Source of the DNA: a virus
Lineage: Duplodnaviria; Caudoviricetes
Virus record (IMG/VR): IMGVR_UViG_3300024346_000003
Length of the DNA: 64,000 bases
Strand: one strand, 5' to 3'
Shown here piece after piece: positions 3 through 36,946 of this stretch (the first letter of the stretch is position 1; the number at the start of each line of letters is the position of its first letter). Position numbers and translations under genes: made by a program. A model generated the notes under the pieces. The model saw only the letters and a program-made list of their open reading frames with translations, was not told the origin of the DNA and searched no databases.

Positions 3-215
3 TACAACATATTAAATGGGTTACCATACATTTATGTTAATGGTAGTTTAGATAATATTGATTTAATTTATGATAAAGTTGGTCTTGATGATAATGAAGA
101 AGAGTTATCAAAATGGGTTAGAGTTCCAGCTAGTAAAGAAAATTTATTATTTTTCCATGGTGAAAAAGATGTTGATATAATGGAAAAAATGATTGAAAAA
201 TTAAAAGAAATATGA
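3..215 (+). CDS. 3' end of a probable glycosyltransferase-like protein (partial)
   Basis: Open frame from nt 3 (YNILNGLPYIY...LLFFHGEKDVD...KLKEI) to TGA 213-215, overlapping the next ATG (ATGA). Not in the ORF track. C-terminal FFHGxK resembles GT-A enzymes. Confidence 0.5.
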   Translation, partial: YNILNGLPYIYVNGSLDNIDLIYDKVGLDDNEEELSKWVRVPASKENLLFFHGEKDVDIMEKMIEKLKEI

Positions 216-1360
216 ATTCAGAAGAAACTAGATTAAAGTATTTGAAAGAAATAAAAAACACTAAAATTAATATAATGAAACCTAAAGAACAAATGTCATT
301 TAATTACCATTTTGTAAATAATCCTTTTTTTGAAGTTATTGGGAATGTTGATGATGAGTTTTTAGTTGAGTTTTATGATAATAATATGGTATTAGTTCAT
401 TCAGCAACCATAAATAGTAATATGTGGACCAAGTTAAATAGAAAATATTTTACAGAATGGAATATTAAAGCTTATCGTAAAGGTGAATTAGTTTGTGATT
501 ATACTTTAGATTTATCAGATAAACGTGTGTTTATAACAATGGAGTCATCATCATTAGGTGATACTATTGCTTGGATACCTTATGTTGAAGAATTTAGAAA
601 AAAACATAATTGCAAAGTTATACTATCAACTTTCTGGAACAAACTATTAAAAGAATCATACCCTAATATTGAATTTGTTGAACCTGGAGTAACTGTGCAT
701 AATTTATTCGCTATGTATTCATTAGGTTGGTTTTATGACGAGGATGCTGAACCAGTATTACCAAACACAATTCCACTGCAACAAACTGCTACAAATATTT
801 TAGGTTTAGAATTTACTGAAATAAAACCAGATATTGATTTTAAACCAAAGGAAAATCCATACGATACAAAATATGTGACAATTGCACCAAATTCAACATC
901 AGGTCTTAAGTATTGGAATAATAAAACTGGTTGGCAAGAAGTAATTGATTTCTTAATTGAAAATGGTTACAAAGTTATCGATGTATCCAAAGAAGGGTCA
1001 AAATATAAAGGTGTTGAAAAATTAAAAGACTGCTCAATTGAAAATACAATGAATGTTATTCACCATAGCGAGTTCTTAATCGGACTTAGCTCTGGTTTAT
1101 CATGGTTATCTTGGGCGATTGGAAAACATGTTGTTATGATTTCTAATTTTACAGTAGAAGACCATGAGTTTACAAGTAACTGTACTAGAATTGTTAATAA
1201 ATCAGTATGTAACGGTTGTTGGAATAATCCAAATTATAAATTTGATAAGGGTGATTGGAATTGGTGTCCAGAACATAAAAACACTTATAAACAATTTGAA
1301 TGCCATAAAAGAATAACTGGTGACATGGTTATTACTGAAATTAAAAAATTATTAAAATGA
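212..1360 (+). CDS. AAH/TibC-family (GT9-like) protein O-heptosyltransferase homologue
   Basis: N-terminal beta module, SLGDTIAWIPYVEEFRKKH, FLIGLSSGLSWLSWAIG, and the four-Cys iron-site motif VCNGCWN..WCPEH...QFEC typical of TibC/AAH. Confidence 0.8.
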   Translation: MNSEETRLKYLKEIKNTKINIMKPKEQMSFNYHFVNNPFFEVIGNVDDEFLVEFYDNNMVLVHSATINSNMWTKLNRKYFTEWNIKAYRKGELVCDYTLDLSDKRVFITMESSSLGDTIAWIPYVEEFRKKHNCKVILSTFWNKLLKESYPNIEFVEPGVTVHNLFAMYSLGWFYDEDAEPVLPNTIPLQQTATNILGLEFTEIKPDIDFKPKENPYDTKYVTIAPNSTSGLKYWNNKTGWQEVIDFLIENGYKVIDVSKEGSKYKGVEKLKDCSIENTMNVIHHSEFLIGLSSGLSWLSWAIGKHVVMISNFTVEDHEFTSNCTRIVNKSVCNGCWNNPNYKFDKGDWNWCPEHKNTYKQFECHKRITGDMVITEIKKLLK

Positions 1361-2034: not shown

Positions 2035-2409
2035 ATGGAAATAGAAGTTTCAATAGGAGAGATAGTTGATAAATTATCAATCTTGGATATCAAAAGAAGA
2101 AGAATAACAAATAGTGATAAATTATTTAAAATTGAAAATGAGTATAATTACCTACATAAAATTGTATTTACTGATTTAAATATTAACACACATGATTATG
2201 AACAATTGTTAATAATAAATGAACAATTATGGGATATTGAAGATGATATTAGAATCAAAGAAAAAAATAAAGAATTTGATGAACCGTTTATCGAATTAGC
2301 TAGATTAGTTTACATAACCAATGATATTAGGTTTGAACTTAAAAAAGTTATTAACATAAAGTATGGTTCAAACTTTTCTGAAGAAAAATCATATGAACCA
2401 TATAATTAA
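2035..2409 (+). CDS. DUF6165-like protein (usually linked to GT9 genes)
   Basis: MEIEVSIGEIVDKLSILDIK...LWDIEDDIR...ARLVYITNDIR..LKK.IN. Confidence 0.7.
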   Translation: MEIEVSIGEIVDKLSILDIKRRRITNSDKLFKIENEYNYLHKIVFTDLNINTHDYEQLLIINEQLWDIEDDIRIKEKNKEFDEPFIELARLVYITNDIRFELKKVINIKYGSNFSEEKSYEPYN

Positions 2410-2898
2410 TTAAAACTTTTTATCAGTTTTCTTCTTAAAATATTTTTCCCTAAGTGCTTTTCTAGCTTGGGTGTATTCCCACGCATCTAAAGCATGTTGT
2501 TTTTGACCAAATGCAAAGTTTAATAATCTACTAAACCAAAGTCCAAATCTATTCAACTTACCTTCTTTTTGTAATTTACCAACACTTGCTGATACAGAAA
2601 TATCTCTATCAGTAAATGTTGTATTTTCTTCAGCTGTCATAAAATCTTCAAGTATTTCACCATTCACATTCCATATTAAATCTAAAGAATATGCTAACTC
2701 ATACAGTATATGACCTAAAGCAAAGAATACACCATCTATTAGTCGCCACCAGAATATAAAAAATGCATACCATTTTTTTAATGTTATTGTCAACCAAATA
2801 GAATAACCTAATGAATACGCAGTACCCATTGTTATCATTAAACAACTCACTATTGTAGCCCATATTAAAGCCCAAACTCCTTGAAAAAATTCTTTCAT
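2410..2898 (-). CDS. hypothetical membrane protein
   Basis: 162 aa with two N-terminal hydrophobic helices. Confidence 0.6.
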   Translation of the reverse strand: MKEFFQGVWALIWATIVSCLMITMGTAYSLGYSIWLTITLKKWYAFFIFWWRLIDGVFFALGHILYELAYSLDLIWNVNGEILEDFMTAEENTTFTDRDISVSASVGKLQKEGKLNRFGLWFSRLLNFAFGQKQHALDAWEYTQARKALREKYFKKKTDKKF

Positions 2899-2909
2899 AA
2901 TTAATTTTT

Positions 2910-3659
2910 TTATTCTAATCTTAATCTATCAATAATACCATCCTTAATAGTTTGTGTTAAATATGGTTTTGTAGAATTGGTTATAGCGGTTCTTAACGGG
3001 TCAGTATACCCATCTATGAATAAATCAACTTCTGTTTTTACACCACTTAATAAATCGAATGACTGTGTCTGACCAATTTGAAATAATGTGTATGATTTAG
3101 TATCAGCAATTATATTACCCCTTCTATCTAACCCTTCTTGTATTGCCTCATCTGTTGAATAATATTTTATAATATTTTTCTCAACACCAATAGTGTCATC
3201 ACTTAAATACCATTTTATATTTAAATTTCTATTTTTAATTAAACCATTAACATCTCTAATGCAAACCATATTTTCTTCTAAAATCAATTCAGAATAGGTG
3301 ATACCATCATAATTTTTAAAATACTCAACCTTTATTAAATTACCGTATAAAATTGTTCTTTTTTTATGAAACCCTAATATATCATAATTGATATCAGAAG
3401 GGTTAATAATTGAATCAGTTATCTTATATTGTACATTAATATATTGTGGTTTTATATCTTCAGGTAATAAGTTATAAAGCTCAATTCTAACGATAGGTTT
3501 ATAATATGTAATTGTTTCATCAATTGAATTATTTACCAATTGATACATATTACCATTAAATAAATAATCTCTTATTTCATCATTTAATGGTACATATTCA
3601 ATATATAAACCATCCTCGAATAGTTCATATCTATTTAATTTTATGTCGAATAATTTCAT
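2910..3659 (-). CDS. hypothetical protein (virion-gene operon)
   Basis: 249-aa ORF tightly coupled downstream of the fibre genes. Confidence 0.6.
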   Translation of the reverse strand: MKLFDIKLNRYELFEDGLYIEYVPLNDEIRDYLFNGNMYQLVNNSIDETITYYKPIVRIELYNLLPEDIKPQYINVQYKITDSIINPSDINYDILGFHKKRTILYGNLIKVEYFKNYDGITYSELILEENMVCIRDVNGLIKNRNLNIKWYLSDDTIGVEKNIIKYYSTDEAIQEGLDRRGNIIADTKSYTLFQIGQTQSFDLLSGVKTEVDLFIDGYTDPLRTAITNSTKPYLTQTIKDGIIDRLRLE

Positions 3660-3662
3660 AGT

Positions 3663-4547
3663 TTAATAATCAGTTTCATAATATATAGATACATAATCAA
3701 GACCAACAGCTGAAGCTGTTGCATTATTAGTTCTATAATCGTTATTTGATAATAGTGCTGTATTTAAAGGTAAAGCTACACCAGCAGCTCCAGTTAACGT
3801 ACCCATAGCAACATCACCAGTATTTAATCTCTCAACCCTATAACCAACACTATTCGTTGAAGATGGACTATTAAATAAAGCTAACTCATATAAATCAGTA
3901 CTTCTTGTATTTGATGGAAATAATGCCCCTAAATTAATTGGTGTTTGGGCTGCTGAACCTCCGTAATATATTCTTAAGGTTGTATCGGCAGCACCATGAC
4001 CAACGCCAATTACGTTAGTTAATGTTGATGGTTCAACATTTACTGGTGAAGTAGCGATGTTTCTTAAACCAACAAACATTCTAGCACCAGCTACCGCAGC
4101 AGCATCAGATATACCAAATCTAACCACATAATAAAAACCACCACCAGTTAATATAGCGCCAGACCCCATTGTTAAAATTAATGAAGTAAGTCTTTGACCA
4201 GTTAATGAACCAGCGGGTGTTCCTGATAATACTTTAAGTCTTCTTGTTCTGGTGAAAAGGTTAGTAGTTGATAAAGCAACTGCTGTTGCTGTACCTGTAA
4301 TTACCATTGGACCTAAACCGAATGTAGTAGTAGCAACAGTTATCCCATTTGCAGTCCAATAACCAACTTTATTGGCAAATAATCCTGATTGAAACGAATA
4401 ATCAACTCCACTAGGACCTACTTGTCCATACATAAGTCTACCACCTCTATCTTTTAATTGTAAAAAAGCACCATCAGGAATTGGTAATGGTTGTGTCACT
4501 GTTTTAGGTGTAAATACTACACCATTGTTTATATTAAATTCTGCCAT
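3663..4547 (-). CDS. putative virion/fibre-associated beta-rich protein
   Basis: 294 aa, Gly/Thr/Ala-rich, in the fibre operon. Confidence 0.5.
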   Translation of the reverse strand: MAEFNINNGVVFTPKTVTQPLPIPDGAFLQLKDRGGRLMYGQVGPSGVDYSFQSGLFANKVGYWTANGITVATTTFGLGPMVITGTATAVALSTTNLFTRTRRLKVLSGTPAGSLTGQRLTSLILTMGSGAILTGGGFYYVVRFGISDAAAVAGARMFVGLRNIATSPVNVEPSTLTNVIGVGHGAADTTLRIYYGGSAAQTPINLGALFPSNTRSTDLYELALFNSPSSTNSVGYRVERLNTGDVAMGTLTGAAGVALPLNTALLSNNDYRTNNATASAVGLDYVSIYYETDY

Positions 4548-4556: not shown

Positions 4557-7500
4557 TTATGTATGTCTAACTATTATTGAACTAAACCATGAAATTGATG
4601 TTGCAGCTTCACCAGTAACTTGTACTAGTATATCTGAACCAGATATTGACATCGATACCGCTGCTGATGAAAATGACGTATTTTGTGTTATTACCTGTGA
4701 ACCAATTTGAGTTATAACACCAGCTTTATTAATAAAACTACCAAGTATTTTACTTGTGATACCTCTATTAAAAACACTATCATATGCTAATACATTTGAT
4801 TCAATCATATATACTTTATTAGATGATAAAGTGATAGTTTCAAGTGTTGTAATTGTAGCATTACCTGTTGATGTTGAACTATTACCATTATGTGTAAAAT
4901 CGCCAAGCAATGTTAATATTGAACCATCAAATGTTAATGCTGATTCACCATTAATTGACCCAGCAACACCAGTCGCAGTTAATAGATAATTATCAACATT
5001 ATTACTTATTGTAACACCACCAGCACCACTAGTACCAGATGTACCATTAGTTCCACTTACACCAATACCACCACTAGTACCCGATGTACCAAAGAATGTA
5101 CCATCAACACCACTAGTACCCGATGTTCCAGATGTACCACTAGTTCCTGAAGTACCATATATTGCTTTTAATTTAGTAACACTTAAAACCGCATTATTAA
5201 CTAAACCACCCGAAGAAGCAACATAACGTGATGCTAATGAAACATAATCACCAGCTGATAAAATTTCTTGAGTAGTAATACCAACAGTCATTTTATCCGT
5301 ACTTGAATTTTTACCTTGAATCAAACTACCATTTAAAACGGTTAAAGCATTTTTAGTAACAGCAAATTCAAAGTCGTTTGTTGTGGTACCTTGAGCAACA
5401 TCACAATGGTAATGTATTGAGTATAATCCACTATCATAAACATAAATTCTATCAGTATTTGTGTTATCATGAGCGATAACTGCGGAATCATTTTCAACAT
5501 CTGTAACATCAAAAGGTATCAATGCTGGTGCAAGTGTTAACGTATACGATGTAGTCCTTCTAGCTTGAGCAACTACCATATCACCAGTTACCGCAAAACC
5601 AGATATTGACCCACTTGTACCACTAGTTCCAGATGTACCATTAGTCCCACTCACACCAGTACCTGATGTTCCAGATGTACCATTATCACCACTACTACCT
5701 GATGTACCCGTTGTTCCACTAGTTCCACTTGTACCTGTAGTTCCAGACGAACCATTAGCACCACTACTACCTGATGTGCCAGATGTACCACTTGTACCTG
5801 ACGAACCATTTGCACCACTACTACCACTAGTTCCAGTTGTACCAGAAGACCCATTAGCACCACTACTACCTGATGTACCACTCGTACCAGTTGACCCTGA
5901 AGTTCCAGTTGTACCTGAAGTACCTGATGAACCATTCACCCCACTACTACCACTAGTACCTGACGTTCCACTTGAACCATTATCACCACTACTACCTGAT
6001 GTACCCGTTGTTCCAGATGAACCAGAGGTTCCACTTGTTGCAGATGAACCTGATGTACCCGAACTACCGTTAGCACCACTTGAACCTGATGTACCACTTG
6101 TAGCTGAACTACCTGACGTTCCCGAAGTTCCTGTTGTACCTGACGAACCATTAGCACCAGATGAACCACTAGTCCCCGTTGTTCCACTTGAACCATTTAC
6201 ACCACTTGAACCTGATGTACCACTTGTAGCTGAACTACCTGACGTTCCCGTAGTACCAGATGTTCCTGATGTTCCACTTGAACCGTTAGCTCCACTACTA
6301 CCAGATGTTCCACTTGTAGCTGATGTACCTGAAGTACCACTCGTACCAGTTGTTCCACTAGTTCCAGAAGTTGCTGATGTTCCACTAGTTCCACTTGTAG
6401 CTGAACTACCTGATGTTCCACTTGTACCCGATGTACCGCTAGTTCCAGAGCTACCCGATGTACCAGACGTACCATCAGAACCACCACTTCTATAATATAC
6501 AGTACCATTAGTATCTGTAACCATAAATCTAGTTAAAGTGGGGTTATTAGTTAATCCAGTAACATTAATATTTGAAGTTTCTAATAAATCGACATTAACG
6601 ATATTATTATTACCCATATTTAAATTTCCAGACATAGGTCTAGCACCATCAACTAATAGATATTGTAAGTGGTCATCTGATGAAAGCCCTAATAAGTTAG
6701 CATGTAATGATGATGCATTTACCCCACCAGCTTTAAACCCAATAACTGGTCTAATATCTTCAAATTGTGTAATACCTGTTAAACCTTGTTGAATATATAT
6801 GTTTGCAATTTGAGCAACTGAATCATTAAAAAAAGTTGGAGGTGTTGGTAATAAAGCATTTTCAGCTTGAACCAATGTTGCATATTCATTTTGACCTAAT
6901 ACTAAAAAATATTTTTCATATGAACCATCACCAACAATATAAAGAGTGTGTTTTGTAAAATAATTTGTAGTTAATCCAGATAAAACACCATTATTATCAA
7001 AATCTGTATTATTAACAATAGTTGTACCTGATGTAATCCAACCACCAAGACCATCTCTACGATATTGTAAAAATGATATAGGTGAACCACCGATAGTTGT
7101 ATAAACATTAGTTGAATAATAATACTCACCAGCGGTAACATCTAAAGTAAATCCAGTAGTTCCTTCTGTGACAATAGAACCATAAGCATAAATTGGACCC
7201 AAAGCTTCCCTAAATAAATTACCATATCTATTTGAGGTGTGGTCAGCATTTAATGGACTTAAATCAATAAAAACAACACCTGTTGAATCTGTAACAACCC
7301 TACCTAAAATTATATTATTTACTGAACTTGGTCTACTACCAGAACTTGATAAAATACTATTTTCATTTATATAAATGTAATCATTTGTATTTGGTAATAA
7401 AGTAATTTGAGAATTACCCCAATCAATTCTAACTATAACACTAGGTGATAGTGTTTTAGCCAAATAACCAAAACCAATTTTTACTGTAACTGTAAATCCA

Positions 7501-9530
7501 CTATCGAGTATAATAGTACCACCTTCCATTAGACCCATCGACCCACCTTGAAATATTAAAGTTGTAAAATCTGTATGGGTTCCGTCTGCAAATGTTACAG
7601 AAGCTTTTCTTGTAATTTCTAATTCACCATCATCAATATCTAGATAAGACCAATATATGTCAGAACTGTTTGTAAATATTTTTTGGTGACTAGAACTACC
7701 ACCAAAAGTACCAAATGTGTCAATTTGTTCAACATATAAATCCCATTCCCCATTTACAATACTTACATTATCAATATCAAACATAATTGGGTCTCCCACA
7801 TTTGGATTTCTAATGCCATATGTAAAACCATCTATTGTAATTGTACTACAATATAATCCAGCACCATCTTGAACAAAGTATGCAGTACTACCTGAAACAC
7901 CATTACTTGCATTGTCACCAACAAAAACACTTAATGTTGCACCACTACCTGATACATAGTTACAATAAGTCACATTTGCTCCCGTTGGGAAGTTAAAATA
8001 GTTTTCCATATTGGCTAACGCCTCATAACCGTTGTTTCCTATAACTTTTGTTCCATAAGTATATGTACCATTATAATCAACATATTCACCATAAAACTTA
8101 GTATCTTGAGTGTTTGATTCAACCCAGATATTTGTATCGCAATCGTAAAATGATATTTTATGTGCTTGACCGAAATCACCAATATCATAAACATAAATAC
8201 CAGCATACCCAACTCCAGAACCACTAAGACTTAAAAAAGATATTTCATTATTAACTCCTAATTTCATTATATGTTGTGATGATGTTGCTGGTAATATTTG
8301 TGTTGTTTGGATATTACTACCAACAATACTTACGTATGGTGTTTGTGTTAAATCAATTTCGTTTTCTGTAAATTGACCAGGACCAACCTGAATAACATAT
8401 CTACTATTAGAAGATGTTGACCCACTAGCAATTAAATAATCAACTGCTGATTTTATAGATGTAAAATCAGCACCTTTTTTTGCTACAGTAATTATTCTAG
8501 CATCTTGACCAACCTCATAAAGTGGTGAATTTATATTTATTCTTGTTTTTAAGAAATTATCAGTACCTTGAACCTTACCAATTGCACCAGAATGTATTAT
8601 ATCAACATCCTTTGTACAGTTTTCAAAATTAAGTGAAATAGCATCAATACTTGGTGCAGAACCAACTTGCGGTGCATAAATACCCGTAGCCCATCTTTGA
8701 AAATTAACACCTGTCAATCTTAAAGATGCACCATTCTCAATCCAGAACCCAACACCAGCAGCACTACCGCTTGCCTTTGTTAATAAACAACCATTAACAA
8801 TAAACGCACAACCAGGTTGGTCAGCCTTAGCGAATACTAATCCAGCTGTTGTTGCAACACCACCATTTGTTGATGTTACGTTTCTTAATTGCATTCTACC
8901 TATACCTGAACCATCGTTTGTACAATAGAACCCTAAAGTAAATGGATAACCACCGTATTTTACATTTGAACATTGCATAATACAGTTACCACCAGAAGTA
9001 CCAACAACTTTAGCATGTGTATAGTTAGTACCAAATCTTACATTTTCAACATAAAATATAGCATTTAATTGAGGTGTTGTAGGTGATGAATAATATACAG
9101 CCGCAACACCAGTACCAGTACAACCTTGAATTTGTACGTTATTAATCATAGATTGGTCAGCACCAATAATTAATGATACATTTGGATTTATAGCTTGTAT
9201 AATTGTATTTGTTGCACTTTCACCAATAACATCAACATATGATTTCATGGTTATGGTGTTTTCATAGAATACGCCAGGACCAACTGCAACAACATAAGTA
9301 TTTGTTGACGAAGCACCAGTGATACTATCAACCGCCGCTTTAATTGAATTAAAATCTACAGTACTCCCAGAAAGACCAACGGTAACTAAATTTTTAACAT
9401 TAATTAAATCATTAATATTTCTACTTTTTACAAGACCAACATTATCAATAGCTAATACTTCATTTTCAGTTGTACCACTATTTATCGACTTAATAATTAT
9501 ACCTTTTCTGGCTACAAATTCATTTGACAT
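4557..9530 (-). CDS. large virion fibre protein: beta-helix-like N-terminus, Gly-X-Y (GTS) tract, C1q/BclA-C-like domain
   Basis: 1657 aa; two pectin-lyase-like lead-ins (DFNSIKAAVDSI, DFTSIKSAVDYL); about 288-aa GTS tract; then IPFD...VYDSGLYSIHYH (C1q/TNF-like); second short GTS tract. Confidence 0.7.
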   Translation of the reverse strand: MSNEFVARKGIIIKSINSGTTENEVLAIDNVGLVKSRNINDLINVKNLVTVGLSGSTVDFNSIKAAVDSITGASSTNTYVVAVGPGVFYENTITMKSYVDVIGESATNTIIQAINPNVSLIIGADQSMINNVQIQGCTGTGVAAVYYSSPTTPQLNAIFYVENVRFGTNYTHAKVVGTSGGNCIMQCSNVKYGGYPFTLGFYCTNDGSGIGRMQLRNVTSTNGGVATTAGLVFAKADQPGCAFIVNGCLLTKASGSAAGVGFWIENGASLRLTGVNFQRWATGIYAPQVGSAPSIDAISLNFENCTKDVDIIHSGAIGKVQGTDNFLKTRININSPLYEVGQDARIITVAKKGADFTSIKSAVDYLIASGSTSSNSRYVIQVGPGQFTENEIDLTQTPYVSIVGSNIQTTQILPATSSQHIMKLGVNNEISFLSLSGSGVGYAGIYVYDIGDFGQAHKISFYDCDTNIWVESNTQDTKFYGEYVDYNGTYTYGTKVIGNNGYEALANMENYFNFPTGANVTYCNYVSGSGATLSVFVGDNASNGVSGSTAYFVQDGAGLYCSTITIDGFTYGIRNPNVGDPIMFDIDNVSIVNGEWDLYVEQIDTFGTFGGSSSHQKIFTNSSDIYWSYLDIDDGELEITRKASVTFADGTHTDFTTLIFQGGSMGLMEGGTIILDSGFTVTVKIGFGYLAKTLSPSVIVRIDWGNSQITLLPNTNDYIYINENSILSSSGSRPSSVNNIILGRVVTDSTGVVFIDLSPLNADHTSNRYGNLFREALGPIYAYGSIVTEGTTGFTLDVTAGEYYYSTNVYTTIGGSPISFLQYRRDGLGGWITSGTTIVNNTDFDNNGVLSGLTTNYFTKHTLYIVGDGSYEKYFLVLGQNEYATLVQAENALLPTPPTFFNDSVAQIANIYIQQGLTGITQFEDIRPVIGFKAGGVNASSLHANLLGLSSDDHLQYLLVDGARPMSGNLNMGNNNIVNVDLLETSNINVTGLTNNPTLTRFMVTDTNGTVYYRSGGSDGTSGTSGSSGTSGTSGTSGTSGSSATSGTSGTSATSGTSGTTGTSGTSGTSATSGTSGSSGANGSSGTSGTSGTTGTSGSSATSGTSGSSGVNGSSGTTGTSGSSGANGSSGTTGTSGTSGSSATSGTSGSSGANGSSGTSGSSATSGTSGSSGTTGTSGSSGDNGSSGTSGTSGSSGVNGSSGTSGTTGTSGSTGTSGTSGSSGANGSSGTTGTSGSSGANGSSGTSGTSGTSGSSGANGSSGTTGTSGTSGTTGTSGSSGDNGTSGTSGTGVSGTNGTSGTSGTSGSISGFAVTGDMVVAQARRTTSYTLTLAPALIPFDVTDVENDSAVIAHDNTNTDRIYVYDSGLYSIHYHCDVAQGTTTNDFEFAVTKNALTVLNGSLIQGKNSSTDKMTVGITTQEILSAGDYVSLASRYVASSGGLVNNAVLSVTKLKAIYGTSGTSGTSGTSGTSGVDGTFFGTSGTSGGIGVSGTNGTSGTSGAGGVTISNNVDNYLLTATGVAGSINGESALTFDGSILTLLGDFTHNGNSSTSTGNATITTLETITLSSNKVYMIESNVLAYDSVFNRGITSKILGSFINKAGVITQIGSQVITQNTSFSSAAVSMSISGSDILVQVTGEAATSISWFSSIIVRHT
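5020..5155 (-). repeat. short second GTS repeat tract
   Basis: [20 protein letters not shown]...GTSGAGG. Confidence 0.85.
5610..6473 (-). repeat. Gly-Thr-Ser triplet coding repeat (about 288 aa)
   Basis: [21 protein letters not shown] triplets, 9-nt periodicity, one 2-residue register break. Confidence 0.95.
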
Positions 9531-9681: not shown

Positions 9682-11277
9682 TTATATTACTCTAACACCA
9701 TTTTTAATAGTCCAAGTACCACTTGATATAGTTGCAATAAGATTAACATTACCACCAGATAAACTAACTGATAAATCAACTTGATTTGTAGTACCACCTA
9801 AATCTAATGTAGATGTATCAGTATATTCAGTACCAATACCATTCCAAACACTCACAACTGTACCAACCCTCATAGTAGTACCACTCATAACATAATAATC
9901 AAAATAAGCACCATAACCAAATGTTTCTGGTATTGAAGAACAAACATGGATACCAGTAGTTAATCCACTTATAATATTAGTGTCCATAACTAATGTACCA
10001 TCAAGTATTAACCTTGAATTATCATACGTTAATCCAGATTGTGCAATTGCACCATTTGTTGTACCATCAGATGTTAATAATCTAGTTATTTGTGGGAATT
10101 GTACAGTATTGAATCCTGTTCCACTACTACCCGAAGTTCCACTTGTACCAGTAGTTCCAGAAGTACCACTTGTTCCAGTTGTCCCAGAACTACCTGATGT
10201 GCCAGAGGTTCCTGATGTACCCGAAGTGGCTGAACTACCTGATGTTCCACTAGTACCACTTGTTCCAGTTGTCCCAGAACTACCTGATGTGCCAGAGGTT
10301 CCTGATGTACCCGAAGTGGCTGAACTACCTGATGTTCCACTAGTACCACTAGTTCCAGAAGTCCCGCTTGTTGCTGAACTTCCACTTGTTCCGCTTGTTC
10401 CAGTTGTCCCAGAACTACCAGATGTACCCGAACTACCAGAACTACCACTAGTTCCAGATGTACCACTTGTTGCTGAACTTCCACTTGTTCCGCTTGTAGC
10501 CGAACTACCCGAAGTCCCACTTGTACCCGTAGTTCCAGATGTACCACTTGTTGCTGAACTTCCACTTGTACCCGTAGTTCCAGATGTACCACTTGTTGCT
10601 GAACTTCCACTTGTACCCGTAGTTCCAGATGTACCACTTGTACCTGATGTTCCAGTTGTCCCAGAAGTTCCACTTGTGGCAGAACTACCTGATGTACCCG
10701 AACTACCAGAAGCACCACTACTACCAGTACCACCACTTGTACCACTTGTTGCTGAACTACCACTTGTTCCACTTGTACCTGTAGTTCCAGATGTTCCCCT
10801 CGTGCCTGAAGTACCGCTAGTTCCACTTGTTGCTGAACTACCTGATGTTCCGCTAGTTGCTGAACTACCCGATGTACCACTAGTTGCTGAACTACCTGAT
10901 GTACCACTCGTACCTGACGTACCTCTAGTTCCACTTGACCCAGAAGTACCTGATGTGCCAGAGGTTCCTGATGTACCATCCGAACCACCAGATTGATAAT
11001 GAACATTATCATTTGCATCTAAAACTAAAAATTTAGATGAACCTATTATGTTACTAACATTTGGTAATTTTAATATATTTAAACTTGTTTCACCTGTAAC
11101 ATTAAAATTACCATCTATCGTTGCAGTTGTTGCTGATAATCTAATAGACATAGTTCCATCACAACTAACTATATCAGCAGTTGTAATACCAGTACATGGT
11201 TTAAACGGAGTAACTGGTGTGCTACTAATTATGAACGTCTTATTTACGTTTATATTACCTTGTGAAAAATTATCCAT
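9682..11277 (-). CDS. virion fibre protein with GTS tract
   Basis: 531 aa; about 288-aa G-X-Y tract flanked by small beta domains; shares the lead-in ([15 protein letters not shown]) with the 1657-aa protein. Confidence 0.7.
10114..10977 (-). repeat. Gly-Thr-Ser triplet coding repeat (288 aa)
   Basis: [12 protein letters not shown] triplets with higher-order repeats. Confidence 0.95.
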
Positions 11278-13013: not shown

Positions 13014-14864
13014 TTGATAAATTTAGATGAAATAGGTGGGTATTCAGCAATCTCAAAACTTAAGGGTTATGAAGGTAAAAACCCATATATAAAAAAAATG
13101 AAAAAAAAATTATTGGCTGACGGTAAAATAATTCTTACACCAACCCAAAGTAAATATGTAATGGATAACTTTGATAAAGAACCTATGTTAATTAATAAAA
13201 TTGTTAATATAACTGAATTCTTAGGTGAATCATTACAACAAAATGAGAAATTAACATTCAAACCAGAAAGGATTTTAATTGAATTTATGTTAGCTGATTC
13301 TGAAAAGACTTATCATGTATATGGTAAATTAACTAAAAAACAAGCAAAGTCTGGAATGTATTTTTTACCAAAAACACAAGTGGTTGATGACCCATATTTC
13401 CAAGAATGTGATATTGATGTTGATTTTGAAAAATATGAGAAACTAGACAGCTTTATTGATTCAGAAGGTAAAGTTGGTAGAAAAATATTAGACCATCAAA
13501 AATCAGGTATAAAATTCTTATTGACTAGAAATGGTGCAATACTAGCTGATGATATGGGTTTAGGTAAATCAATGCAATCAATAGTGGCCGCTATTGAAAG
13601 TGGTGCTAAAAAAATATTAATTGTTTGTCCATCATCAGCAAAAATAAACTGGCAAAGAGAAATTAATTACTTACAAGAAGAAGATATTACGATAATCAGT
13701 GGTTCGAGATGGTCACACGCAAAGTTTACAATAATTAACTTTGATATATTGAAAAATTTCCACACATTAAAAGATGATAAAAATGATGGTATGCCACCGA
13801 TTAGAGATTTAGTTAACTCTAATTTTGATTTGTGTATTATAGATGAAGCTCACAACCTTAGAAACCATAAAAGTATTCGTGGTGCTATTATGACTGAACT
13901 TTGTGTAGATTATGGAATTGAACGAGTTTGGTTATTATCAGGAACACCTGTGGCAAACAGACCTATGGACTTTTATAACTTATTACGATTAATTAAATCA
14001 CCATTAGTTGATAATTGGAAATTCTATGCTCAAAGATACTGTGAAGGTAAACAAATTACAACAACATTAAAGAATAGAACAAAAAGAAAAATTTGGATTA
14101 CCAATGGTGCATCAAATTTAGATGAATTATCTATTAAAACTAGGAATCTTCTATTAAGAAGAATGAAAGATGAAGTTTTAGATATGCCAGACAAAATACG
14201 AGTTCCGAATTATTTTAAAATGTCAAACAAACAACAACTAGAATATGACTCACTATGGGAAGATTATCTACTTGAAAGAAAAAAACAAAAGAAAAAAGGT
14301 ACTATACAAAGAGATTTAGTTGAATTAGGTTTACTAAGAAAATATATTGCAATGGAAACTATACCAGAAACTATAGCTTTAGTTGATGAAGTAATAGAAC
14401 AAGGTCATAAAGTAATCATCTTTACATGTTTCACTGATGAATTAAACGCACTAGCTGAACATTATGGTAGTAATTGTGTAATTCATTATGGTGAATTAAA
14501 TGAAAAAGAAAAACAAAAATCAGTAGATAAATTCCAAATGGAAGGTGGTCCGATGGTATTTATAGGTAATATTATATCAGCTGGTGTTGCGATTACATTA
14601 ACAAGGTCAACATATGTTGTTTTTAATTCATTTGACTGGGTTCCTGGTAATTCAGAACAAGCTGAAGATAGAAGTTATAGATTAGGTCAAAAAAATAATG
14701 TTACAGTTTATTATAACTTATTTGAGAACACAATAGTTAGCACAATGTGGCACACCTTGAATAGAAAGAAAAACATAATTAATCAAATTATGTCAAGAAA
14801 TGATAATAACACAACCGCAGTTGATGAAATTGTGGATTATATAATAGAAGATAAAATAGAATAA
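13014..14864 (+). CDS. SNF2/HARP-like DEAH helicase
   Basis: LADDMGLGKS (Walker A), IIDEAH, LLSGTP, QAEDRSYRLGQ; TTG start. Confidence 0.9.
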   Translation: MINLDEIGGYSAISKLKGYEGKNPYIKKMKKKLLADGKIILTPTQSKYVMDNFDKEPMLINKIVNITEFLGESLQQNEKLTFKPERILIEFMLADSEKTYHVYGKLTKKQAKSGMYFLPKTQVVDDPYFQECDIDVDFEKYEKLDSFIDSEGKVGRKILDHQKSGIKFLLTRNGAILADDMGLGKSMQSIVAAIESGAKKILIVCPSSAKINWQREINYLQEEDITIISGSRWSHAKFTIINFDILKNFHTLKDDKNDGMPPIRDLVNSNFDLCIIDEAHNLRNHKSIRGAIMTELCVDYGIERVWLLSGTPVANRPMDFYNLLRLIKSPLVDNWKFYAQRYCEGKQITTTLKNRTKRKIWITNGASNLDELSIKTRNLLLRRMKDEVLDMPDKIRVPNYFKMSNKQQLEYDSLWEDYLLERKKQKKKGTIQRDLVELGLLRKYIAMETIPETIALVDEVIEQGHKVIIFTCFTDELNALAEHYGSNCVIHYGELNEKEKQKSVDKFQMEGGPMVFIGNIISAGVAITLTRSTYVVFNSFDWVPGNSEQAEDRSYRLGQKNNVTVYYNLFENTIVSTMWHTLNRKKNIINQIMSRNDNNTTAVDEIVDYIIEDKIE

Positions 14865-14866
14865 AA

Positions 14867-15124: not shown

Positions 15125-15146
15125 TTGATGATTATAGTATTGTTAG

Positions 15147-15154
15147 ATATTTAT
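15147..15154 (+). promoter_or_regulatory. putative late promoter ATATTTAT
   Basis: 16 nt upstream of the neck-gene ATG. Confidence 0.65.
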
Positions 15155-15170
15155 ATATAAATCAGATATC

Positions 15171-16322: not shown

Positions 16323-16323
16323 A

Positions 16324-24600: not shown

Positions 24601-25543
24601 AACCACTACTTTGAATTGAATTATGTATTGTAATTGGTGAGCAACCGTGTAAATTAGAAACCCATAAATCCCCGATACAATTTCCAGATGTATTACCTGT
24701 AAACTCTATTGAAGATAAATCTAACGTATAAGCTGATAATGCATCGGTTCTATCAAAATATGCGACTGTACCAATTAATGTTGACCCAGTTGTATAATAA
24801 TTTGTATAACCAGTTAAGAATCCATTTACATTGAATGTACCACCTGTGTTATTCGTAAAGGTAGCGACACCATTACTTTGGTTATAAGTACCACCAGTGA
24901 TAAATATTTCAGTACTACCAGTATAGAATCCATTTACATTAAACGTACCACCCGTATTATTAGTGAATATAGCAGTACCGTTAGAATAAGTACCACCTGT
25001 AACTAATACTTCAACACCACCAGTGTAAAACCCATTTACGTTAAATGTACCACCTGTATTATTAGTAAAGGTAGCAGTACCGTTAGAATAAGTACCTCCA
25101 GTAACCACCGTATCAAATTGAGGTAACTCAACTAATAATGTAGTACCATTACCACTAATACTACCACCACTAAGTATAATATCACCGTTTAATACAACTA
25201 ATTGAGCACCATCATTCAATTTAAGCAACCCTTCAATATATAAGTCACCATAAATAAAACTTTGATAACCATTAGCTATTTCAACAGTTGTACCTGAAGG
25301 TATATGCCATCTATTCCCCTCAGCTTCAAATTGAGTTAAATCAACAAATATATCATTACCATTAATTTTATTTAAAATTAAATTAGTACCAGAGGTTTGT
25401 GCTGAATATATAAGTTCACCCTTTAAGTATATGAAGTTATTATCAACATCAGCCCAAGACAATACACTACCCGTAGTGATATCATTAAATGGTGTAATCC
25501 ATGGACTATTTAAACTCCTTAATATTAGTTTATTATTTGGCAT
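21647..25543 (-). CDS. trimeric adhesin-like tail fibre with TGGTY and SHAEG (YadA head-like) repeats
   Basis: 1298 aa; three 34-aa TGGTY repeats; about 40 14-aa SHAEG repeats. Confidence 0.7.
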   Translation of the reverse strand: MPNNKLILRSLNSPWITPFNDITTGSVLSWADVDNNFIYLKGELIYSAQTSGTNLILNKINGNDIFVDLTQFEAEGNRWHIPSGTTVEIANGYQSFIYGDLYIEGLLKLNDGAQLVVLNGDIILSGGSISGNGTTLLVELPQFDTVVTGGTYSNGTATFTNNTGGTFNVNGFYTGGVEVLVTGGTYSNGTAIFTNNTGGTFNVNGFYTGSTEIFITGGTYNQSNGVATFTNNTGGTFNVNGFLTGYTNYYTTGSTLIGTVAYFDRTDALSAYTLDLSSIEFTGNTSGNCIGDLWVSNLHGCSPITIHNSIQSSGSSVNNSFGIAFGENAVVNAAEIINTQTPITIISGCSFTNSDPNYSYPAIILPGDVTASWQEYIWNFCSEFLISGSSGTEILNVGCSVYDIYYDGVSSTYIVDSSLVGSNYTLISGNTFYYVSTTFQRTAFAFGKDVIATGLYSHAEGQSTTASGNTSHAEGLQTTAIGNYSHAEGYYTDAVGQASHAEGSLTTASGGASHAEGFQTTAIGNYSHVEGQNTAAVGQYSHAEGYQTTASGITSHAEGFVTRAGGYASHAEGATTTASGVYSHAEGQLTIASGAVSHAEGFVTRASGNNAHSEGYQTTASGSFSHAEGANTTASGAVSHAEGQSTIASGAQSHAEGQSTTASGNTSHAEGISTKSFGSYSHAEGQSTIANGEVSHAEGYITIAIGNYSHAEGATTTASGTYSHAEGQLTIASGTTSHAEGFVTRAGGQYSHSEGYQTTAIGTASHAENVSTRATGSGSHAEGNGTTSFGQNSHAEGLITTSVGSWSHSEGRLTTANGLASHTEGNSTIAGGNTAHAEGSGTTTSNMAAHAEGYLSIASGYVSHAEGQQTTANGSRAHAEGIYTTASGTYSHAEGYQTNASGSTSHAEGTGTIAGNYVSHAEGHYTKAMGSNSHAEGANTTASGTVSHAEGSGTIVSSAYSHGEGYYTVASGASSHSEGSNTTASGSYSHSEGYFTKALGNFGSHAEGFYTTANGNGSHTEGSGTTASGKYSHSEGALTTASGDYSHAGGINTIASTNTSFIHSTNSRVTGARSAVLGGQNITGATADTVYVPNLNINSTPTNDNSLTQVLVRATDGTVKYRTVSPYPLNYGLFSQTGTSVDVTNTLVETTLINNGTGSLSIPANGFSVGDSFTAKLIGHVSSVNGHKLRIRIKSGIVVLADTGSITMPVTNIEHWNIDINFTVRAIGAAGVASIASGGIFNYTKTSSNSIEGIGFSKIESALFDTTISNTLEVTAQWDTASASDSIYSEIFTLNKTY
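22390..24175 (-). repeat. 42-nt/14-aa SHAEG coding repeat array (about 40 units)
   Basis: Recurrent ccttcagcatgtga on the + strand at 42-nt spacing. Confidence 0.9.
24830..25110 (-). repeat. 34-aa TGGTY repeat x3
   Basis: VTGGTYSNGTATFTNNTGGTFNVNGFYTG units. Confidence 0.85.
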
Positions 25544-34144: not shown

Positions 34145-34156
34145 TAATATTTTTTA

Positions 34157-36946
34157 TTAAAATAATTCAAGTGATGACCTTTTCCAACCATCACTACCTT
34201 TAATATATAAATAGTTATCATCTCTAGTTATGTCACCAATTTTACCATAATTATCCAAACTTGAACTTGGACTATATTCAGGAATTATTAAACTTAGTGG
34301 TGATATTGAATTATTTGTAACCCAACTACCCTCTGAATTTAATTTGAATTCAGCATTAATACCAGAACTAACACCATTTATTAATGATATACCACCACCT
34401 ATTGCTGTTGCAGTTGTACCATTGTAATTTAATTCAATATTATTATCTTCAGCCGCAATAGTTTGTGATTCTAAAATTAAACCATCAGGTGCTGTCATCT
34501 CTTTTATTGCTTCAACAATCCATGGGATTATTTCACTATAATTAAGATTTAACATACCATCACTTTTAGCTCTATTTCTAACTAATTCAGGTACAATTTC
34601 CTGAACCTCTTGTGCTATGAAACCAAATCTAATACCAGAACCCATATTCGATTCTTCAGTATATTCAAAAGAAACACCTCTTAAATTTTTAATAACATCT
34701 AAAGCTGTTGGTAATGTGTTAATATTTCTTTTTAATCTAATATCTGAAACACCAGCAACAATTCTACCACTTGCATCAGTAGCTATTGGGTCAGTAGATG
34801 TTAAACCGTCTATTACTAAATCTGGAACATAAACTGTGTCAGCTGTCGAACCAGTTATATTCTGACCACCAATAACAGCACTACGAGCACCAGTAACTCT
34901 TGAATTAGTTGAATGTATAAATGATGTATCACTAATAGCTATTGTTGAACTACCACCAGCGTGTGAATAGTTACCACTAGCTGTTGTTGAATTACCTTCT
35001 GCGTGAGATGAAATACCACCAGCTATCGTTGACTGACCTTCTGCGTGAGATGTTAAACCACTAGCTGTTGTATTACTACCCTCAGCATGAGAATAATTAC
35101 CAATGGTTGTGGTTAATCTACCTTCAGCATGTGATGACCAACCACTAGCGATAGATTGTTCACCTTCAGCATGTGAAGCAAAATTAGCATATGTATTATA
35201 CCCCCCAGCATGTGAATAATCACCACCCGCTACACTTAGATAACCTTCAGCGTGTGAACCAATACCACTAGCTATTGTGCCACCACCTTCAGCATGTGAA
35301 TAAGTACCACTAGCTGTTGATAAATAACCTTCAACATGTGAAGCAAACCCAATAGCGGTAGTTAAAAGACCTTCAGCATGTGAACTAATACCAGAAGCTG
35401 TACCACCACTAACAATAATAACACCATTAAAGTAACCACCCTCAGCATGCGAACCAGCACCAATTGATTGTGAATAATAACCCTCAGCATGTGAAGTATA
35501 ACCACTAGCTTTTGTACCTTCACCTTCAGCATGTGATATAAGACCACTAGCTATTGTATAACTACCTTCAGCATGTGATGCATCACCACTAGCTGTTGTA
35601 GCATAACCTTCAGCATGTGAATAACCACCAATAGCTCTTGTTAGACCACCCTCAGCATGTGAACCTATACCACTAGCAGTTGAAAATTGACCTTCTGCAT
35701 GTGAATATTGATTAGTTGTTGATGTTTGATAACCTTGAGCATGTGAATAGTTACCGCTAGCTATTGTTGCTCTACCTTCAGCGTGTGAATATAAACCACT
35801 AGCTGTTGTATTATACCCTTCAGCATGTGAATAATCACTTTCAGCAGTTGTTTGGAATCCTTCAGCATGTGAAGTTACACCACTAGCTATTGTACCCGAA
35901 CCTTCAGCATGTGAGTAATTACCACTTGCGGTTGTTTGATTACCCTCAGCGTGTGACGTAATACCACTAGCTACTGTAAACGAACCTTCAGCGTGAGACT
36001 TTAAACCACTAGCTGTTGTATTAGAACCCTCAGCGTGTGAACCTTGACTACTGGCTGTTGTACTCTCACCTTCTGAATGCGAATATTCACCCAATGCTTT
36101 TGTTAATGTACCCTCAGCGTGTGCGCTATCGTCACCAGCTACTGTAAACGAACCTTCAGCATGTGAACTATTACCACTAGCTATTGTACCAATACCTTCA
36201 GCATGTGAATACAACCCGATAGCCGTTGTACCATTACCTTCAGCCAAAGCATAGTCACCAGAAGCCAAATTACCAGCACTTTCAGTTACAATAGCAAAAT
36301 TACCAGTTGAAGCTGACCAAAATGTTGTACCAGATGTAACAGCAGATACTGATTGCCAAGTTGCCATACCTTCAGAATTTGAAGTTAAAACATATCCAAT
36401 TTGTGGGTTATCACTAACTATTAATTTTTTAGTTCTTAATATTTCAGTATTATCAACCCAAATAGTCCTACCTGTAAAATCTAAGGTTTCTGCACTATAA
36501 ATAAAAAAGTCTGTCGAAACAGTACCACTATAGTTGCCTGGGGTTGGTTCTGACATCGTTATTGGGTATAAATTAGAAGCACTAACACCAGAGTATGTTA
36601 AATTAACTAAATTACCATCTATTATGGTTGTAGAACTACTACCAAATATAGCTGATATGTTTTGAGATACACCACTATTACTTGGTGTTAATGCTGATAT
36701 AGATGAATCAACAGCTGAAACACCTGGGATACCCCATGTGAACACTGTTGTTGCACTATTACCCGAATACGAACTAATAACACCAAAATACTGTGATGTT
36801 TGTGCCGTGGCCGTTAAATCAGGTCCAGATGTTAATGCACTAAATGGCATACCAAAAACTGTAGTACCTGATAAAGTTGTTTCAGTTCTCTCTCTTTGTT
36901 TTATTTGTCGATTGTCAGAATAATCTAATTTTGTTCTAAAAGCCAT
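34157..36946 (-). CDS. tail fibre with SHAEG repeats and Peptidase_S74 intramolecular chaperone domain
   Basis: 929 aa; about 30 SHAEG units; SDIRLKRNI...GFIAQEVQEIVPELV...LNYSEII. Confidence 0.8.
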   Translation of the reverse strand: MAFRTKLDYSDNRQIKQRERTETTLSGTTVFGMPFSALTSGPDLTATAQTSQYFGVISSYSGNSATTVFTWGIPGVSAVDSSISALTPSNSGVSQNISAIFGSSSTTIIDGNLVNLTYSGVSASNLYPITMSEPTPGNYSGTVSTDFFIYSAETLDFTGRTIWVDNTEILRTKKLIVSDNPQIGYVLTSNSEGMATWQSVSAVTSGTTFWSASTGNFAIVTESAGNLASGDYALAEGNGTTAIGLYSHAEGIGTIASGNSSHAEGSFTVAGDDSAHAEGTLTKALGEYSHSEGESTTASSQGSHAEGSNTTASGLKSHAEGSFTVASGITSHAEGNQTTASGNYSHAEGSGTIASGVTSHAEGFQTTAESDYSHAEGYNTTASGLYSHAEGRATIASGNYSHAQGYQTSTTNQYSHAEGQFSTASGIGSHAEGGLTRAIGGYSHAEGYATTASGDASHAEGSYTIASGLISHAEGEGTKASGYTSHAEGYYSQSIGAGSHAEGGYFNGVIIVSGGTASGISSHAEGLLTTAIGFASHVEGYLSTASGTYSHAEGGGTIASGIGSHAEGYLSVAGGDYSHAGGYNTYANFASHAEGEQSIASGWSSHAEGRLTTTIGNYSHAEGSNTTASGLTSHAEGQSTIAGGISSHAEGNSTTASGNYSHAGGSSTIAISDTSFIHSTNSRVTGARSAVIGGQNITGSTADTVYVPDLVIDGLTSTDPIATDASGRIVAGVSDIRLKRNINTLPTALDVIKNLRGVSFEYTEESNMGSGIRFGFIAQEVQEIVPELVRNRAKSDGMLNLNYSEIIPWIVEAIKEMTAPDGLILESQTIAAEDNNIELNYNGTTATAIGGGISLINGVSSGINAEFKLNSEGSWVTNNSISPLSLIIPEYSPSSSLDNYGKIGDITRDDNYLYIKGSDGWKRSSLELF
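34960..36250 (-). repeat. 42-nt/14-aa SHAEG coding repeat array (about 30 units)
   Basis: Same unit as 22390-24175, with one irregular insertion (YFNGVIIVSGG). Confidence 0.9.

Follow-up and report, generated by a model that had tools for sequence, protein, structure and literature searches.

What would a tailed phage do with enzymes related to TibC and Aah, the glycosyltransferases that modify autotransporters of E. coli? This question is raised by the window analyzed here, a 64,000-nucleotide stretch of DNA from IMG/VR record IMGVR_UViG_3300024346_000003 (Duplodnaviria; Caudoviricetes) that represents a low-GC (~30%) portion of a large, myovirus-like uncultured phage. An initial annotation, made from the sequence, recognized two homologues of the autotransporter O-heptosyltransferase family, one at 212..1360 with a full set of four cysteines and one at 20285..21334, located at the edge of and inside a block of fibre genes, and proposed that they prime O-glycans on virion fibres. 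Both open reading frames (ORFs) are present at these coordinates and are termed glycosyltransferase A (GT-A) and glycosyltransferase B (GT-B) in this report. We find that both proteins have the sequence signature and the predicted fold of the TibC/Aah family. The proposed priming of fibre glycans is supported by comparative genomics, as relatives of GT-A occur beside genes with collagen-like Gly-Thr-Ser (GTS) tracts and relatives of GT-B beside fibres built from SHAEG repeats. Taken as a whole, the proposal that these enzymes act as protein O-glycosyltransferases on the phage's own repeat fibres, each on its own class, is probable without being compelling. That GT-A would modify the GTS fibres we regard as likely, while modification of the SHAEG fibres by GT-B is a tentative suggestion with somewhat less than even prospects. 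The enzymes and their candidate acceptors are as follows.

212..1360, plus strand: GT-A, an iron-finger homologue of the TibC/Aah-family (bacterial autotransporter heptosyltransferase, BAHT) protein O-glycosyltransferases, 382 amino acids (TIGR04414, TibC structure 4rap, AlphaFold2 model)
20285..21334, minus strand: GT-B, a TibC-like glycosyltransferase paralogue without an iron finger, 349 amino acids (TIGR04414, TibC, AlphaFold2 model)
4557..9530, minus strand: collagen-repeat fibre of 1657 amino acids, candidate GT-A acceptor (Pfam Collagen, E 4e-37; PHROG tail-fibre families)
9682..11277, minus strand: collagen-repeat fibre of 531 amino acids, candidate GT-A acceptor (Pfam Collagen, E 2.3e-31)
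21647..25543, minus strand: SHAEG-repeat fibre of 1298 amino acids, candidate GT-B acceptor (Pfam YadA_head; phrog_25468, E 1e-138)
34157..36946, minus strand: SHAEG-repeat fibre of 929 amino acids with a C-terminal intramolecular chaperone domain, second possible acceptor (Pfam Peptidase_S74, E 9.7e-17, and YadA_head; PHROG tail-fibre families)

Results

GT-A and GT-B belong to the TibC/Aah family

By sequence and predicted structure, GT-A is a homologue of the TibC/Aah-family glycosyltransferases, and GT-B is a divergent paralogue in the same family that lacks the iron finger. Against TIGR04414 (hepto_Aah_TibC), the NCBIfam equivalog for the autotransporter strand-loop-strand O-heptosyltransferase with a curated cut-off of 200 bits, GT-A scored 292.9 bits (E 3.2e-87) and GT-B 180.9 bits (E 3.4e-53); the latter is narrowly under the cut-off, yet this is by far its best model. 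Models for lipopolysaccharide (LPS) heptosyltransferases (TIGR02193, NF007742 and NF008204, with cut-offs of 185-467) gave only 13-23 bits, the best values being 23.3 for GT-A and 15 for GT-B. Pfam places both proteins in Glyco_transf_9, and among PHROGs no family matched either of them. A phmmer search of the PDB aligned GT-A with TibC (4rap) over TibC residues 62-386 (E 3e-56), and the alignment of GT-B (E 1.4e-23) was limited to TibC residues 95-328. AlphaFold2 models of GT-A and GT-B have predicted local distance difference test (pLDDT) scores of 90 and 93, respectively, and the top Foldseek matches for both are the TibC entries 4rap and 4rb4, with template modelling (TM) scores of 0.83-0.85 over approximately 380 columns that include the N-terminal beta-barrel. 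Measured against 4rap the TM scores are 0.83 for GT-A and 0.84 for GT-B, with the next best matches, WaaC and WaaF, reaching 0.38-0.56.

An unrooted FastTree phylogeny of 187 non-redundant domains places GT-A in an almost wholly viral clade of 66 rows (support 99) and GT-B in a clade of 21 rows (support 100), here called type A and type B. LPS heptosyltransferases were left out as an outgroup because at 9-15% identity they would introduce long-branch artefacts. The autotransporter-linked sequences form a single classical clade of 29 members (support 100) that has no GTS neighbours and includes neither GT-A nor GT-B. The family assignment made in the initial annotation is thus upheld by the TIGR04414 scores, by the alignment and structural comparison with TibC and by the presence of all four cysteines in GT-A, and the two proteins do not group with LPS heptosyltransferases by profile score, fold or tree.

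Both branches of the family are large. Relatives of GT-A form 1563 clusters at 50% identity, and the GT-B subfamily comprises 750 proteins at E <= 1e-5, nearly all of which are 345-350 amino acids in length. The phage record collection contained only four relatives of GT-A, three of them in unannotated huge-phage records and the fourth in Microcystis phage Mel-JY01, the sole annotated phage record under the match, where the protein is labelled "methyltransferase FkbM".

The flanking fibres carry densely repeated Ser-Gly motifs

The collagen-type fibres are built from triplets with Gly, sometimes Ala, at the first position, mostly Thr at X and mostly Ser at Y, in uninterrupted repeats that match the collagen triple-helix model Pfam PF01391. 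The 1657-residue fibre has 92 consecutive Gly/Ala-Thr/Ser-Ser/Thr/Asn triplets without proline at residues 1017-1292 in addition to shorter tracts, and the 531-residue fibre has 97 consecutive GTS-type triplets at residues 98-388, with Ser and Thr together making up 47% of the protein. Nearly all triplets are GTS, GSS, GTT or ATS, and the Y position is Ser in 70 of the 92 and 83 of the 97 triplets, respectively. Contigs with an identical GT-A differ in the length of these fibres (1657 versus 1615 amino acids for one, and 531 versus 486 versus 459 for the other) as well as in that of a YadA-head fibre upstream of the enzyme (481, 509 or 565 amino acids), so the repeat tracts grow and shrink from strain to strain. 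Residues 1-1000 of the 1657-residue fibre, which precede the GTS tract, contain two similar segments (~50-100 and ~350-400) that look like a duplicated beta-helix or tailspike-type domain.

The SHAEG fibres have a different architecture, with YadA-head-like repeats of the consensus S-H-A-E-G-x-x-T-T-A-S-G-x-x. The 1298-residue fibre has approximately 40 such 14-residue repeats and 28 exact SHAEG motifs, and the 929-residue fibre has approximately 25 SHAEG-type repeats and 24 exact motifs; 34 and 21 units, respectively, are exactly 14 residues long. Both exceed the YadA_head (PF05658) cut-off of 25 bits, with scores of 26.9 and 25.1, respectively. Both types of repeat present a regularly spaced x-Ser-Gly, as Thr-Ser-Gly every 3 residues in the collagen-like tracts and Ala-Ser-Gly every 14 residues in the SHAEG repeats. 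The mapped sites in TibA are N-S-G-G and V-S-G-T, and TibC modifies Ser and not Thr (PMC4358343).

GTS tracts are enriched beside relatives of GT-A

The neighbourhood of the enzyme was assessed with 80 viral loci that encode relatives of GT-A at 53-99% identity, taken with 10 kb on each side, and with three control sets from the same collection, all with near-duplicates removed. A GTS tract was defined as an ORF with at least 15 Gly-X-Y triplets in which at least 70% of X and Y are Ser or Thr and less than 3% are Pro. By this definition a tract lies within 10 kb in 25 of 50 non-redundant loci, as compared with 1 of 50 loci centred on PhoH (Fisher 2e-8), 0 of 62 centred on GT2 transferases (Fisher 2e-11) and 0 of 54 centred on the tail sheath of related myoviruses. 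Co-occurrence with GTS-repeat genes, a check proposed in the initial annotation, is thus apparent in this sample. When at least 8 kb of downstream flank was available, the fraction rose to 22 of 34, with two additional loci having looser tracts. The tract gene is located downstream on the opposite strand in 31 of 40 viral cases (median distance, 1 kb) and in 8 of 14 bacterial cases.

The non-repeat N- and C-terminal domains of the two collagen-like fibres in this phage recur in only 1-4 of 96 related loci. Thus, it is the repeat itself that accompanies the enzyme, and not a syntenic fibre gene. We also looked at the association in reverse. Among 120 viral blocks retrieved with a (GTS)4 DNA pattern, which are short and off-centre, 6 had a TibC-like ORF; after filtering for a true tract with at least 4 kb past its 3' end, the count was 5 of 23 versus 0 of 160 control loci. 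This reverse association is weaker but real.

SHAEG fibres occur near relatives of GT-B

For type-B loci, a SHAEG fibre was defined by at least 5 units of the form [SA]H[ASTV]EG. Such a fibre lies within approximately 4 kb of the enzyme in 6 of 25 non-redundant loci (about 6 of the 13 with usable flank), and a GTS tract was present in none. The fibre is upstream in four of the six loci, upstream with one intervening gene in a fifth, and downstream in the sixth. Type-A loci have a SHAEG fibre in 2 of 141 cases and a GTS tract in 52 of 141, and control loci have a SHAEG fibre in 8 of 111. The enrichment in type-B loci has a Fisher probability of 1.5e-4 versus type A and 0.02 versus the controls. 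In four further long contigs the type-B enzyme has a SHAEG fibre no more than 4 kb upstream in every case, which brings the pooled count to about 10 of 17 type-B loci with enough flank, among which gene orders vary.

Bacterial relatives pair with corresponding repeat proteins

A scan of bacteria that used one genome per species revealed homologues in chromosomes of Methylococcales, Arenicellales and Pseudobdellovibrionaceae (on contigs of up to 5.2 Mb) at 37-42% identity. These are followed after approximately 100-350 bp by a gene, usually convergent, for a small Pfam-Collagen protein whose 23-50 triplets form a tract rich in Ser/Thr and free of Pro. Homologues in Burkholderia, Bradyrhizobium, Pararobbsia and others, at 34-38% identity, instead precede, on the same strand, genes for proteins of 1300-3300 amino acids, and the two of these proteins that were scanned have AIDA repeats and an Autotransporter beta-domain. 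The class of putative acceptor follows the enzyme clade in phages and bacteria alike, and of all the evidence assembled it is this that most strongly points to the neighbour as substrate.

At six of the bacterial loci (L424, L426, L429, L431, L432 and L434) the collagen-repeat proteins are approximately 200-530 amino acids in length, some with a CarboxypepD_reg-like N-terminal domain. The combination of a TibC-like gene with a small collagen-repeat protein looks like an undescribed bacterial glycoprotein system.

Catalytic residues are retained while donor and assembly determinants differ

Residues of known function in TibC (PMC4358343) were compared across the 187 non-redundant relatives. GT-A retains equivalents of the TibC catalytic base D110 (D117) and of T226 (T229), K230 (K233) and W305 (W298), as well as the four iron-finger cysteines (C333, C336, C352 and C364, for TibC Cys339, 342, 358 and 370), and has Ser at the position of TibC Pro300, as does Aah. 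In GT-B, D110, T226, K230 and W305 correspond to D102, Ser, Lys and Trp. Equivalents of Asp110, Lys230 and Trp305 are invariant in all 187 relatives, with one alignment gap at the Asp110 column in the type-B clade.

The iron finger, which TibC requires for activity and assembly, distinguishes the clades. In the residue comparison, all members of the GT-A clade and of the classical clade have the four cysteines and no member of the type-B clade does, with GT-B having no cysteine at all in the C-terminal tail that follows its SGLSWL motif. When 250 ORFs were scored for at least four tail cysteines, 212 type-A ORFs had them and 8 did not, and none of 30 type-B ORFs had them. A further difference affects the beta-hairpin thumb, which in TibC links dimers into a dodecamer (PMC4358343). 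HMMER alignments show a 9-residue gap in both GT-A and GT-B opposite TibC residues 264-272, the thumb tip with Phe265-Val266, and the thumb segment spans 25-28 residues in the GT-A and type-B clades versus 35-36 in the classical clade.

The position of TibC Arg286 also distinguishes GT-A from the classical enzymes. The contact of this residue with adenine N1 was proposed as the basis of ADP specificity (PMC4358343), and Arg is found in 25 of 27 members of the classical clade, in GT-B and in 14 of 18 members of the type-B clade. GT-A instead has Thr279, and Thr is present in 57 of 58 members of its clade. This clade-wide change at the adenine-contacting position lends support to the earlier suggestion of a possible donor other than ADP-heptose. 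Among Bacteroidota genomes, 63 of 101 sampled have rfaE domain II above the cut-off and 3 of 3 have a GmhA-like match of approximately 195 bits, so ADP-heptose is probably available in this phylum. A GDP-linked manno-sugar from the phage's own Gmd-containing glycan island (below) is a speculative alternative donor for GT-A.

GT-A is part of a glycan cassette embedded among structural genes

The remaining features that bear on glycan synthesis are the following.

1..215, plus strand: 3' end of a 1042-amino-acid fusion of GT4-like, FkbM methyltransferase and GT32-like DXD domains (Pfam Glycos_transf_1, Methyltransf_21 and Gly_transf_sug), complete in the near-identical contigs L001 and L002
1357..2031, plus strand: FkbM-type methyltransferase (Pfam Methyltransf_21, E 1.9e-8)
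2035..2409, plus strand: DUF6165 protein, last gene of the plus-strand cassette (Pfam DUF6165, E 2.4e-9)
44588..61057, plus strand: glycan-synthesis island (Pfam matches)

The cassette runs from the fusion gene through GT-A and FkbM to DUF6165 and is marked by 4-base start/stop overlaps, with the fusion gene stop overlapping the GT-A start and GT-A translationally coupled in the same manner to FkbM. It is inverted amid late genes of the minus strand. To one side it is bordered by the tail tube, tail sheath and YadA-head fibre genes, the first two of which lie directly upstream of the window as judged from near-identical contigs of 191-274 kb. On the other side are three small genes (2410..4547) and then the two collagen-repeat genes, convergent on the cassette. 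A BLAST relative of the FkbM gene occurs in 21 of 96 type-A viral loci, with the same domain fused to many GT-A relatives, and a relative of DUF6165 occurs in 16 of 96. The three small genes were considered as part of a conserved module and rejected, as they recur in 0-2 of the 96 loci.

GT-B is the last gene of a minus-strand fibre operon that opens with the 929-residue SHAEG fibre, and 3' of GT-B are a gene for a 122-residue protein and then DNA polymerase B. The placement of the two enzymes at the edge of and inside the fibre block is thus as originally noticed, with collagen-type and SHAEG fibres flanking them, except that the block is broken at 13014..19761 by DNA polymerase B and an SNF2 helicase.

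The island at 44588..61057 encodes several GT2-type transferases, a hexapeptide acyltransferase, a DegT aminotransferase, a GDP-mannose 4,6-dehydratase (Gmd), a GT-D-like protein, an FkbM protein and a UDP-GlcNAc 2-epimerase-like (WecB-like) protein, and a dUTPase/dCTP-deaminase-like gene precedes it. It is a possible source of sugars and of chain extension. Profile scans of the window ORFs found no heptose-pathway domain and no Autotransporter or AIDA domain. A crude hydropathy scan of the window detected no polytopic membrane protein, and hence no flippase, polymerase or exporter, so that a glycan made here is probably built on a cytoplasmic acceptor. No signal-peptide-bearing protein was found in the window. 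Single hydrophobic segments, in two unrelated ORFs, were all that the hydropathy scan revealed.

Discussion

A proposed model for fibre glycosylation

From the family, fold, conserved residues and gene neighbourhoods described above we infer a model in which acceptor, site, sugar, timing and benefit would be as follows. Two soluble, GT9-derived enzymes of the GT-B fold (the structural class, which both share) would act in the cytoplasm of the infected cell on newly made fibre proteins, which fits the failure to find an exporter or polytopic membrane protein in the window. GT-A would transfer a manno-configured sugar to the Ser of Thr-Ser-Gly units in the Pro-free collagen-like tracts of the 1657- and 531-residue fibres, and GT-B would act on the fibre whose gene lies shortly upstream of its own, at the Ser of the Ala-Ser-Gly turn in the 14-residue SHAEG beta-roll repeats. 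The remaining transferases and methyltransferases of the cassette, and possibly those of the 44.5-61 kb island, would extend, methylate and cap this primer. In the collagen-like tracts the sugars may stand in for hydroxyproline and stabilize a triple helix that has no proline; shielding from proteases and altered receptor binding are additional possible benefits.

Several observations weigh against this model. The case for a fibre glycan is drawn from homology and gene neighbourhood, and the acceptors in AIDA-I and TibA are beta-helices, from which a collagen triple helix differs greatly. The pairing is frequent and not obligatory, as between a third and a half of the relatives of GT-A lack a GTS tract within 10 kb and only about a fifth of well-flanked GTS fibre genes have a TibC-like neighbour. 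The link between type-B enzymes and SHAEG fibres is weaker and, at p = 0.02 versus controls, suggestive; several of the positive loci, including 3 of the 4 further contigs, share the DNA polymerase synteny of this phage and are therefore not independent. The sugar donor is uncertain given Thr at the adenine-contacting Arg286 position in GT-A. Finally, both enzymes lack the thumb tip (~10 residues) and GT-B lacks the iron finger, so the processive dodecamer mechanism of TibC may not apply and should not be assumed.

Alternative roles for the enzymes

The enzymes might act on other phage proteins, such as the sheath, tube, capsid or upstream YadA-head fibre, in which case proximity to the repeat fibres would simply reflect a shared late structural module. 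The cassette does sit among tail tube, sheath and fibre genes, the published phage example concerns capsid and tail-tube subunits (Freeman et al. 2023, as cited in PMC12619734), and the relatives that have no GTS neighbour would be accounted for. This role is nevertheless unlikely, since the absence of GTS tracts from all tail-sheath-centred loci indicates that the association follows the enzyme and not structural modules generally, since the repeat recurs while the rest of the fibre does not, and since homologues on bacterial chromosomes have small collagen-repeat genes as neighbours where no virion module is visible. An improbable target is the host itself, whether LPS core, adhesins or envelope proteins, for example to block superinfection in the manner of seroconverting phage glycosyltransferases. 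Family GT9, to which Pfam assigns both proteins, consists mainly of LPS heptosyltransferases, and rfaE domain II in most sampled Bacteroidota indicates that an ADP-heptose pathway would be at hand. Yet the LPS models score 13-23 bits versus 181-293 for TIGR04414, the TM scores are 0.38-0.56 versus 0.83-0.85, the window encodes no autotransporter, both genes lie within virion modules of a large phage that appears to be lytic, and the neighbourhood statistics favour phage fibres.

Two additional alternatives concern GT-B in particular. That one or both enzymes, and especially GT-B, glycosylate phage DNA or a small molecule is brought to mind by the order of GT-B, the 122-residue gene and DNA polymerase B, which is seen here and in three related contigs, by the dUTPase/dCTP-deaminase-like gene ahead of the island, and by known phage DNA-glycosylating enzymes of the GT-B fold (Pyle 2024, as cited in PMC12619734). 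We consider this very improbable, as the entire TibC architecture is kept, including an N-terminal barrel specific to the protein-modifying family, profile scans of the window showed no gene for hydroxymethyl-pyrimidine synthesis, and the distant type-B loci L249, L253, L256, L333 and L608 retain the SHAEG neighbour and not the polymerase. It is also scarcely probable that GT-B has altered catalysis or is no enzyme at all, serving instead, for example, as a lectin-like protein or a fibre assembly factor. Mutation of any iron-finger cysteine abolishes the activity of TibC in E. coli (PMC4358343), and GT-B has none of the four and scores under the TIGR04414 cut-off; however, the invariance of the Asp110, Lys230 and Trp305 equivalents (with one gap), Arg286 in 14 of 18 members of the clade and the existence of hundreds of clade proteins of a uniform length near 349 amino acids point to purifying selection on an active site.

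Relationship to known glycosylation systems

The closest known system is that of TibC and Aah in E. coli (PDB 4RAP/4RB4; PMC4358343), which act in the cytoplasm and modify Ser but spare Thr. The phage enzymes share with them family, fold, N-terminal barrel, catalytic Asp, phosphate-binding Thr/Ser and Lys, and sugar-contacting Trp, and GT-A shares the four iron-finger cysteines as well. Like those enzymes they are soluble, and their genes adjoin genes for highly repetitive, Ser-rich surface proteins with x-Ser-Gly sites. They differ in that their neighbours are collagen-like GTS fibres and YadA-head-like beta-roll fibres and not AIDA-type autotransporters, in that they fall outside the classical clade with a thumb shorter by about 10 residues, with Thr for Arg286 in the GT-A clade and with no iron finger in GT-B, and in that GT-A belongs to a cassette with further transferases and methyltransferases. 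LPS heptosyltransferases of family GT9 (WaaC, WaaF and WaaQ) share the Pfam Glyco_transf_9 domain and the GT-B-fold catalytic core, but lack the N-terminal barrel and iron finger and act on lipid-linked Kdo/heptose.

Other systems resemble the predicted product more than the enzyme. BclA of the Bacillus anthracis exosporium has a Gly-Pro-Thr collagen-like region with O-linked, rhamnose-containing oligosaccharides (Daubenspeck 2004, as cited in PMC11923368), and in the cuticle collagen of a vent worm glycosylated Thr takes the stabilizing role of hydroxyproline (Mann 1996, as cited in PMC11923368). These collagen-like regions carry O-glycans on Thr/Ser, as is predicted here for the GTS tracts, but the glycosyltransferases are unrelated, and the repeats of BclA contain proline, which is absent from the phage tracts, where almost all Y positions are Ser. 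Virion glycosylation has been shown experimentally in mycobacteriophages, whose glycosyltransferases act on structural proteins of the phage itself (Freeman et al. 2023, PMC10527164, as cited in PMC12619734). By that account this system likewise involves phage-encoded transferases, own structural proteins and the cytoplasm, features that the genes described here would suggest for the present phage, but it uses other enzyme families, and its acceptors are the C-terminal tails of capsid and tail-tube subunits and not repeat fibres. Giant viruses provide a parallel in that they encode both a sugar-nucleotide pathway and the transferases that decorate their surface fibrils, with no reliance on the machinery of the host (PMC9614988), and the window has Gmd, DegT, an acyltransferase and many transferases; that system differs in having eukaryotic hosts and enzymes that are unrelated by their description, and no TibC-type priming enzyme is described for it in that source.

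Our literature search, with incomplete coverage, found no paper on TibC-like enzymes in phages. The enzyme family is known, and what differs is the context: a phage, two classes of fibre-repeat acceptor, a multi-enzyme cassette and altered determinants of assembly and donor use. Apparently new here are the iron-finger-less paralogue with its SHAEG-fibre association, the clade-wide Arg286Thr change and the thumb deletion.

If the two enzymes do glycosylate repeat fibres, then tailed phages of aquatic Bacteroidota, along with many other phages that are uncultured, build glycoprotein fibres with enzymes of their own. This would bear on the folding and protease resistance of receptor-binding fibres, on host range and recognition of the phage particle, and on why Pro-free "collagens" are so common in phage genomes. 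The acceptor range of BAHT enzymes would widen from beta-helical autotransporters to collagen-like and beta-roll repeats, compact enzymes for site-dense glycosylation of Ser would become available, and two paralogues in one genome, each beside a different class of repeat, would constitute a natural experiment in specificity. A more far-reaching and rather doubtful extension is that the TibC/Aah family is mainly a system of phages and environmental bacteria for the glycosylation of repeat fibres, and not one for autotransporters, with subfamilies matched to acceptor architecture, iron-finger enzymes serving Pro-free Gly-Thr-Ser collagen-like helices and iron-finger-less enzymes serving YadA-like beta-rolls, that the GT-A clade has switched to a non-ADP donor such as a GDP-manno-sugar, and that the sugars are needed for folding of the Pro-free helix.

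Other features of the window

Within the 13014-19761 segment that interrupts the fibre block there is also a homologue of the T4 gp13-like neck protein, recognized by a faint Pfam match in relatives, and this arrangement recurs in related contigs. Two further proteins encoded on the minus strand among the fibre genes are of unusual composition and have no Pfam match: a 603-residue protein inside the fibre operon (32333-34144), with 24 Cys and no functional PHROG match, and a 1230-residue protein (26008-29700) that is 18% Asn and has no PHROG match.

Small ORFs without a known family follow large fibre genes at three sites on the minus strand (25601-25978, 29735-30073 and 21376-21636, encoding 125, 112 and 86 amino acids, respectively), a pattern that resembles fibre/chaperone gene pairs. 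The last of these lies next to GT-B.

21376..21636, minus strand: ORF of 86 amino acids that separates the SHAEG fibre from GT-B and matches no known family (tblastn in relatives)

A tblastn search locates this ORF, at 44-99% identity, immediately before the GT-B gene in L085-L088 and L605-L608; its product may assist fibre assembly or serve GT-B as an accessory.

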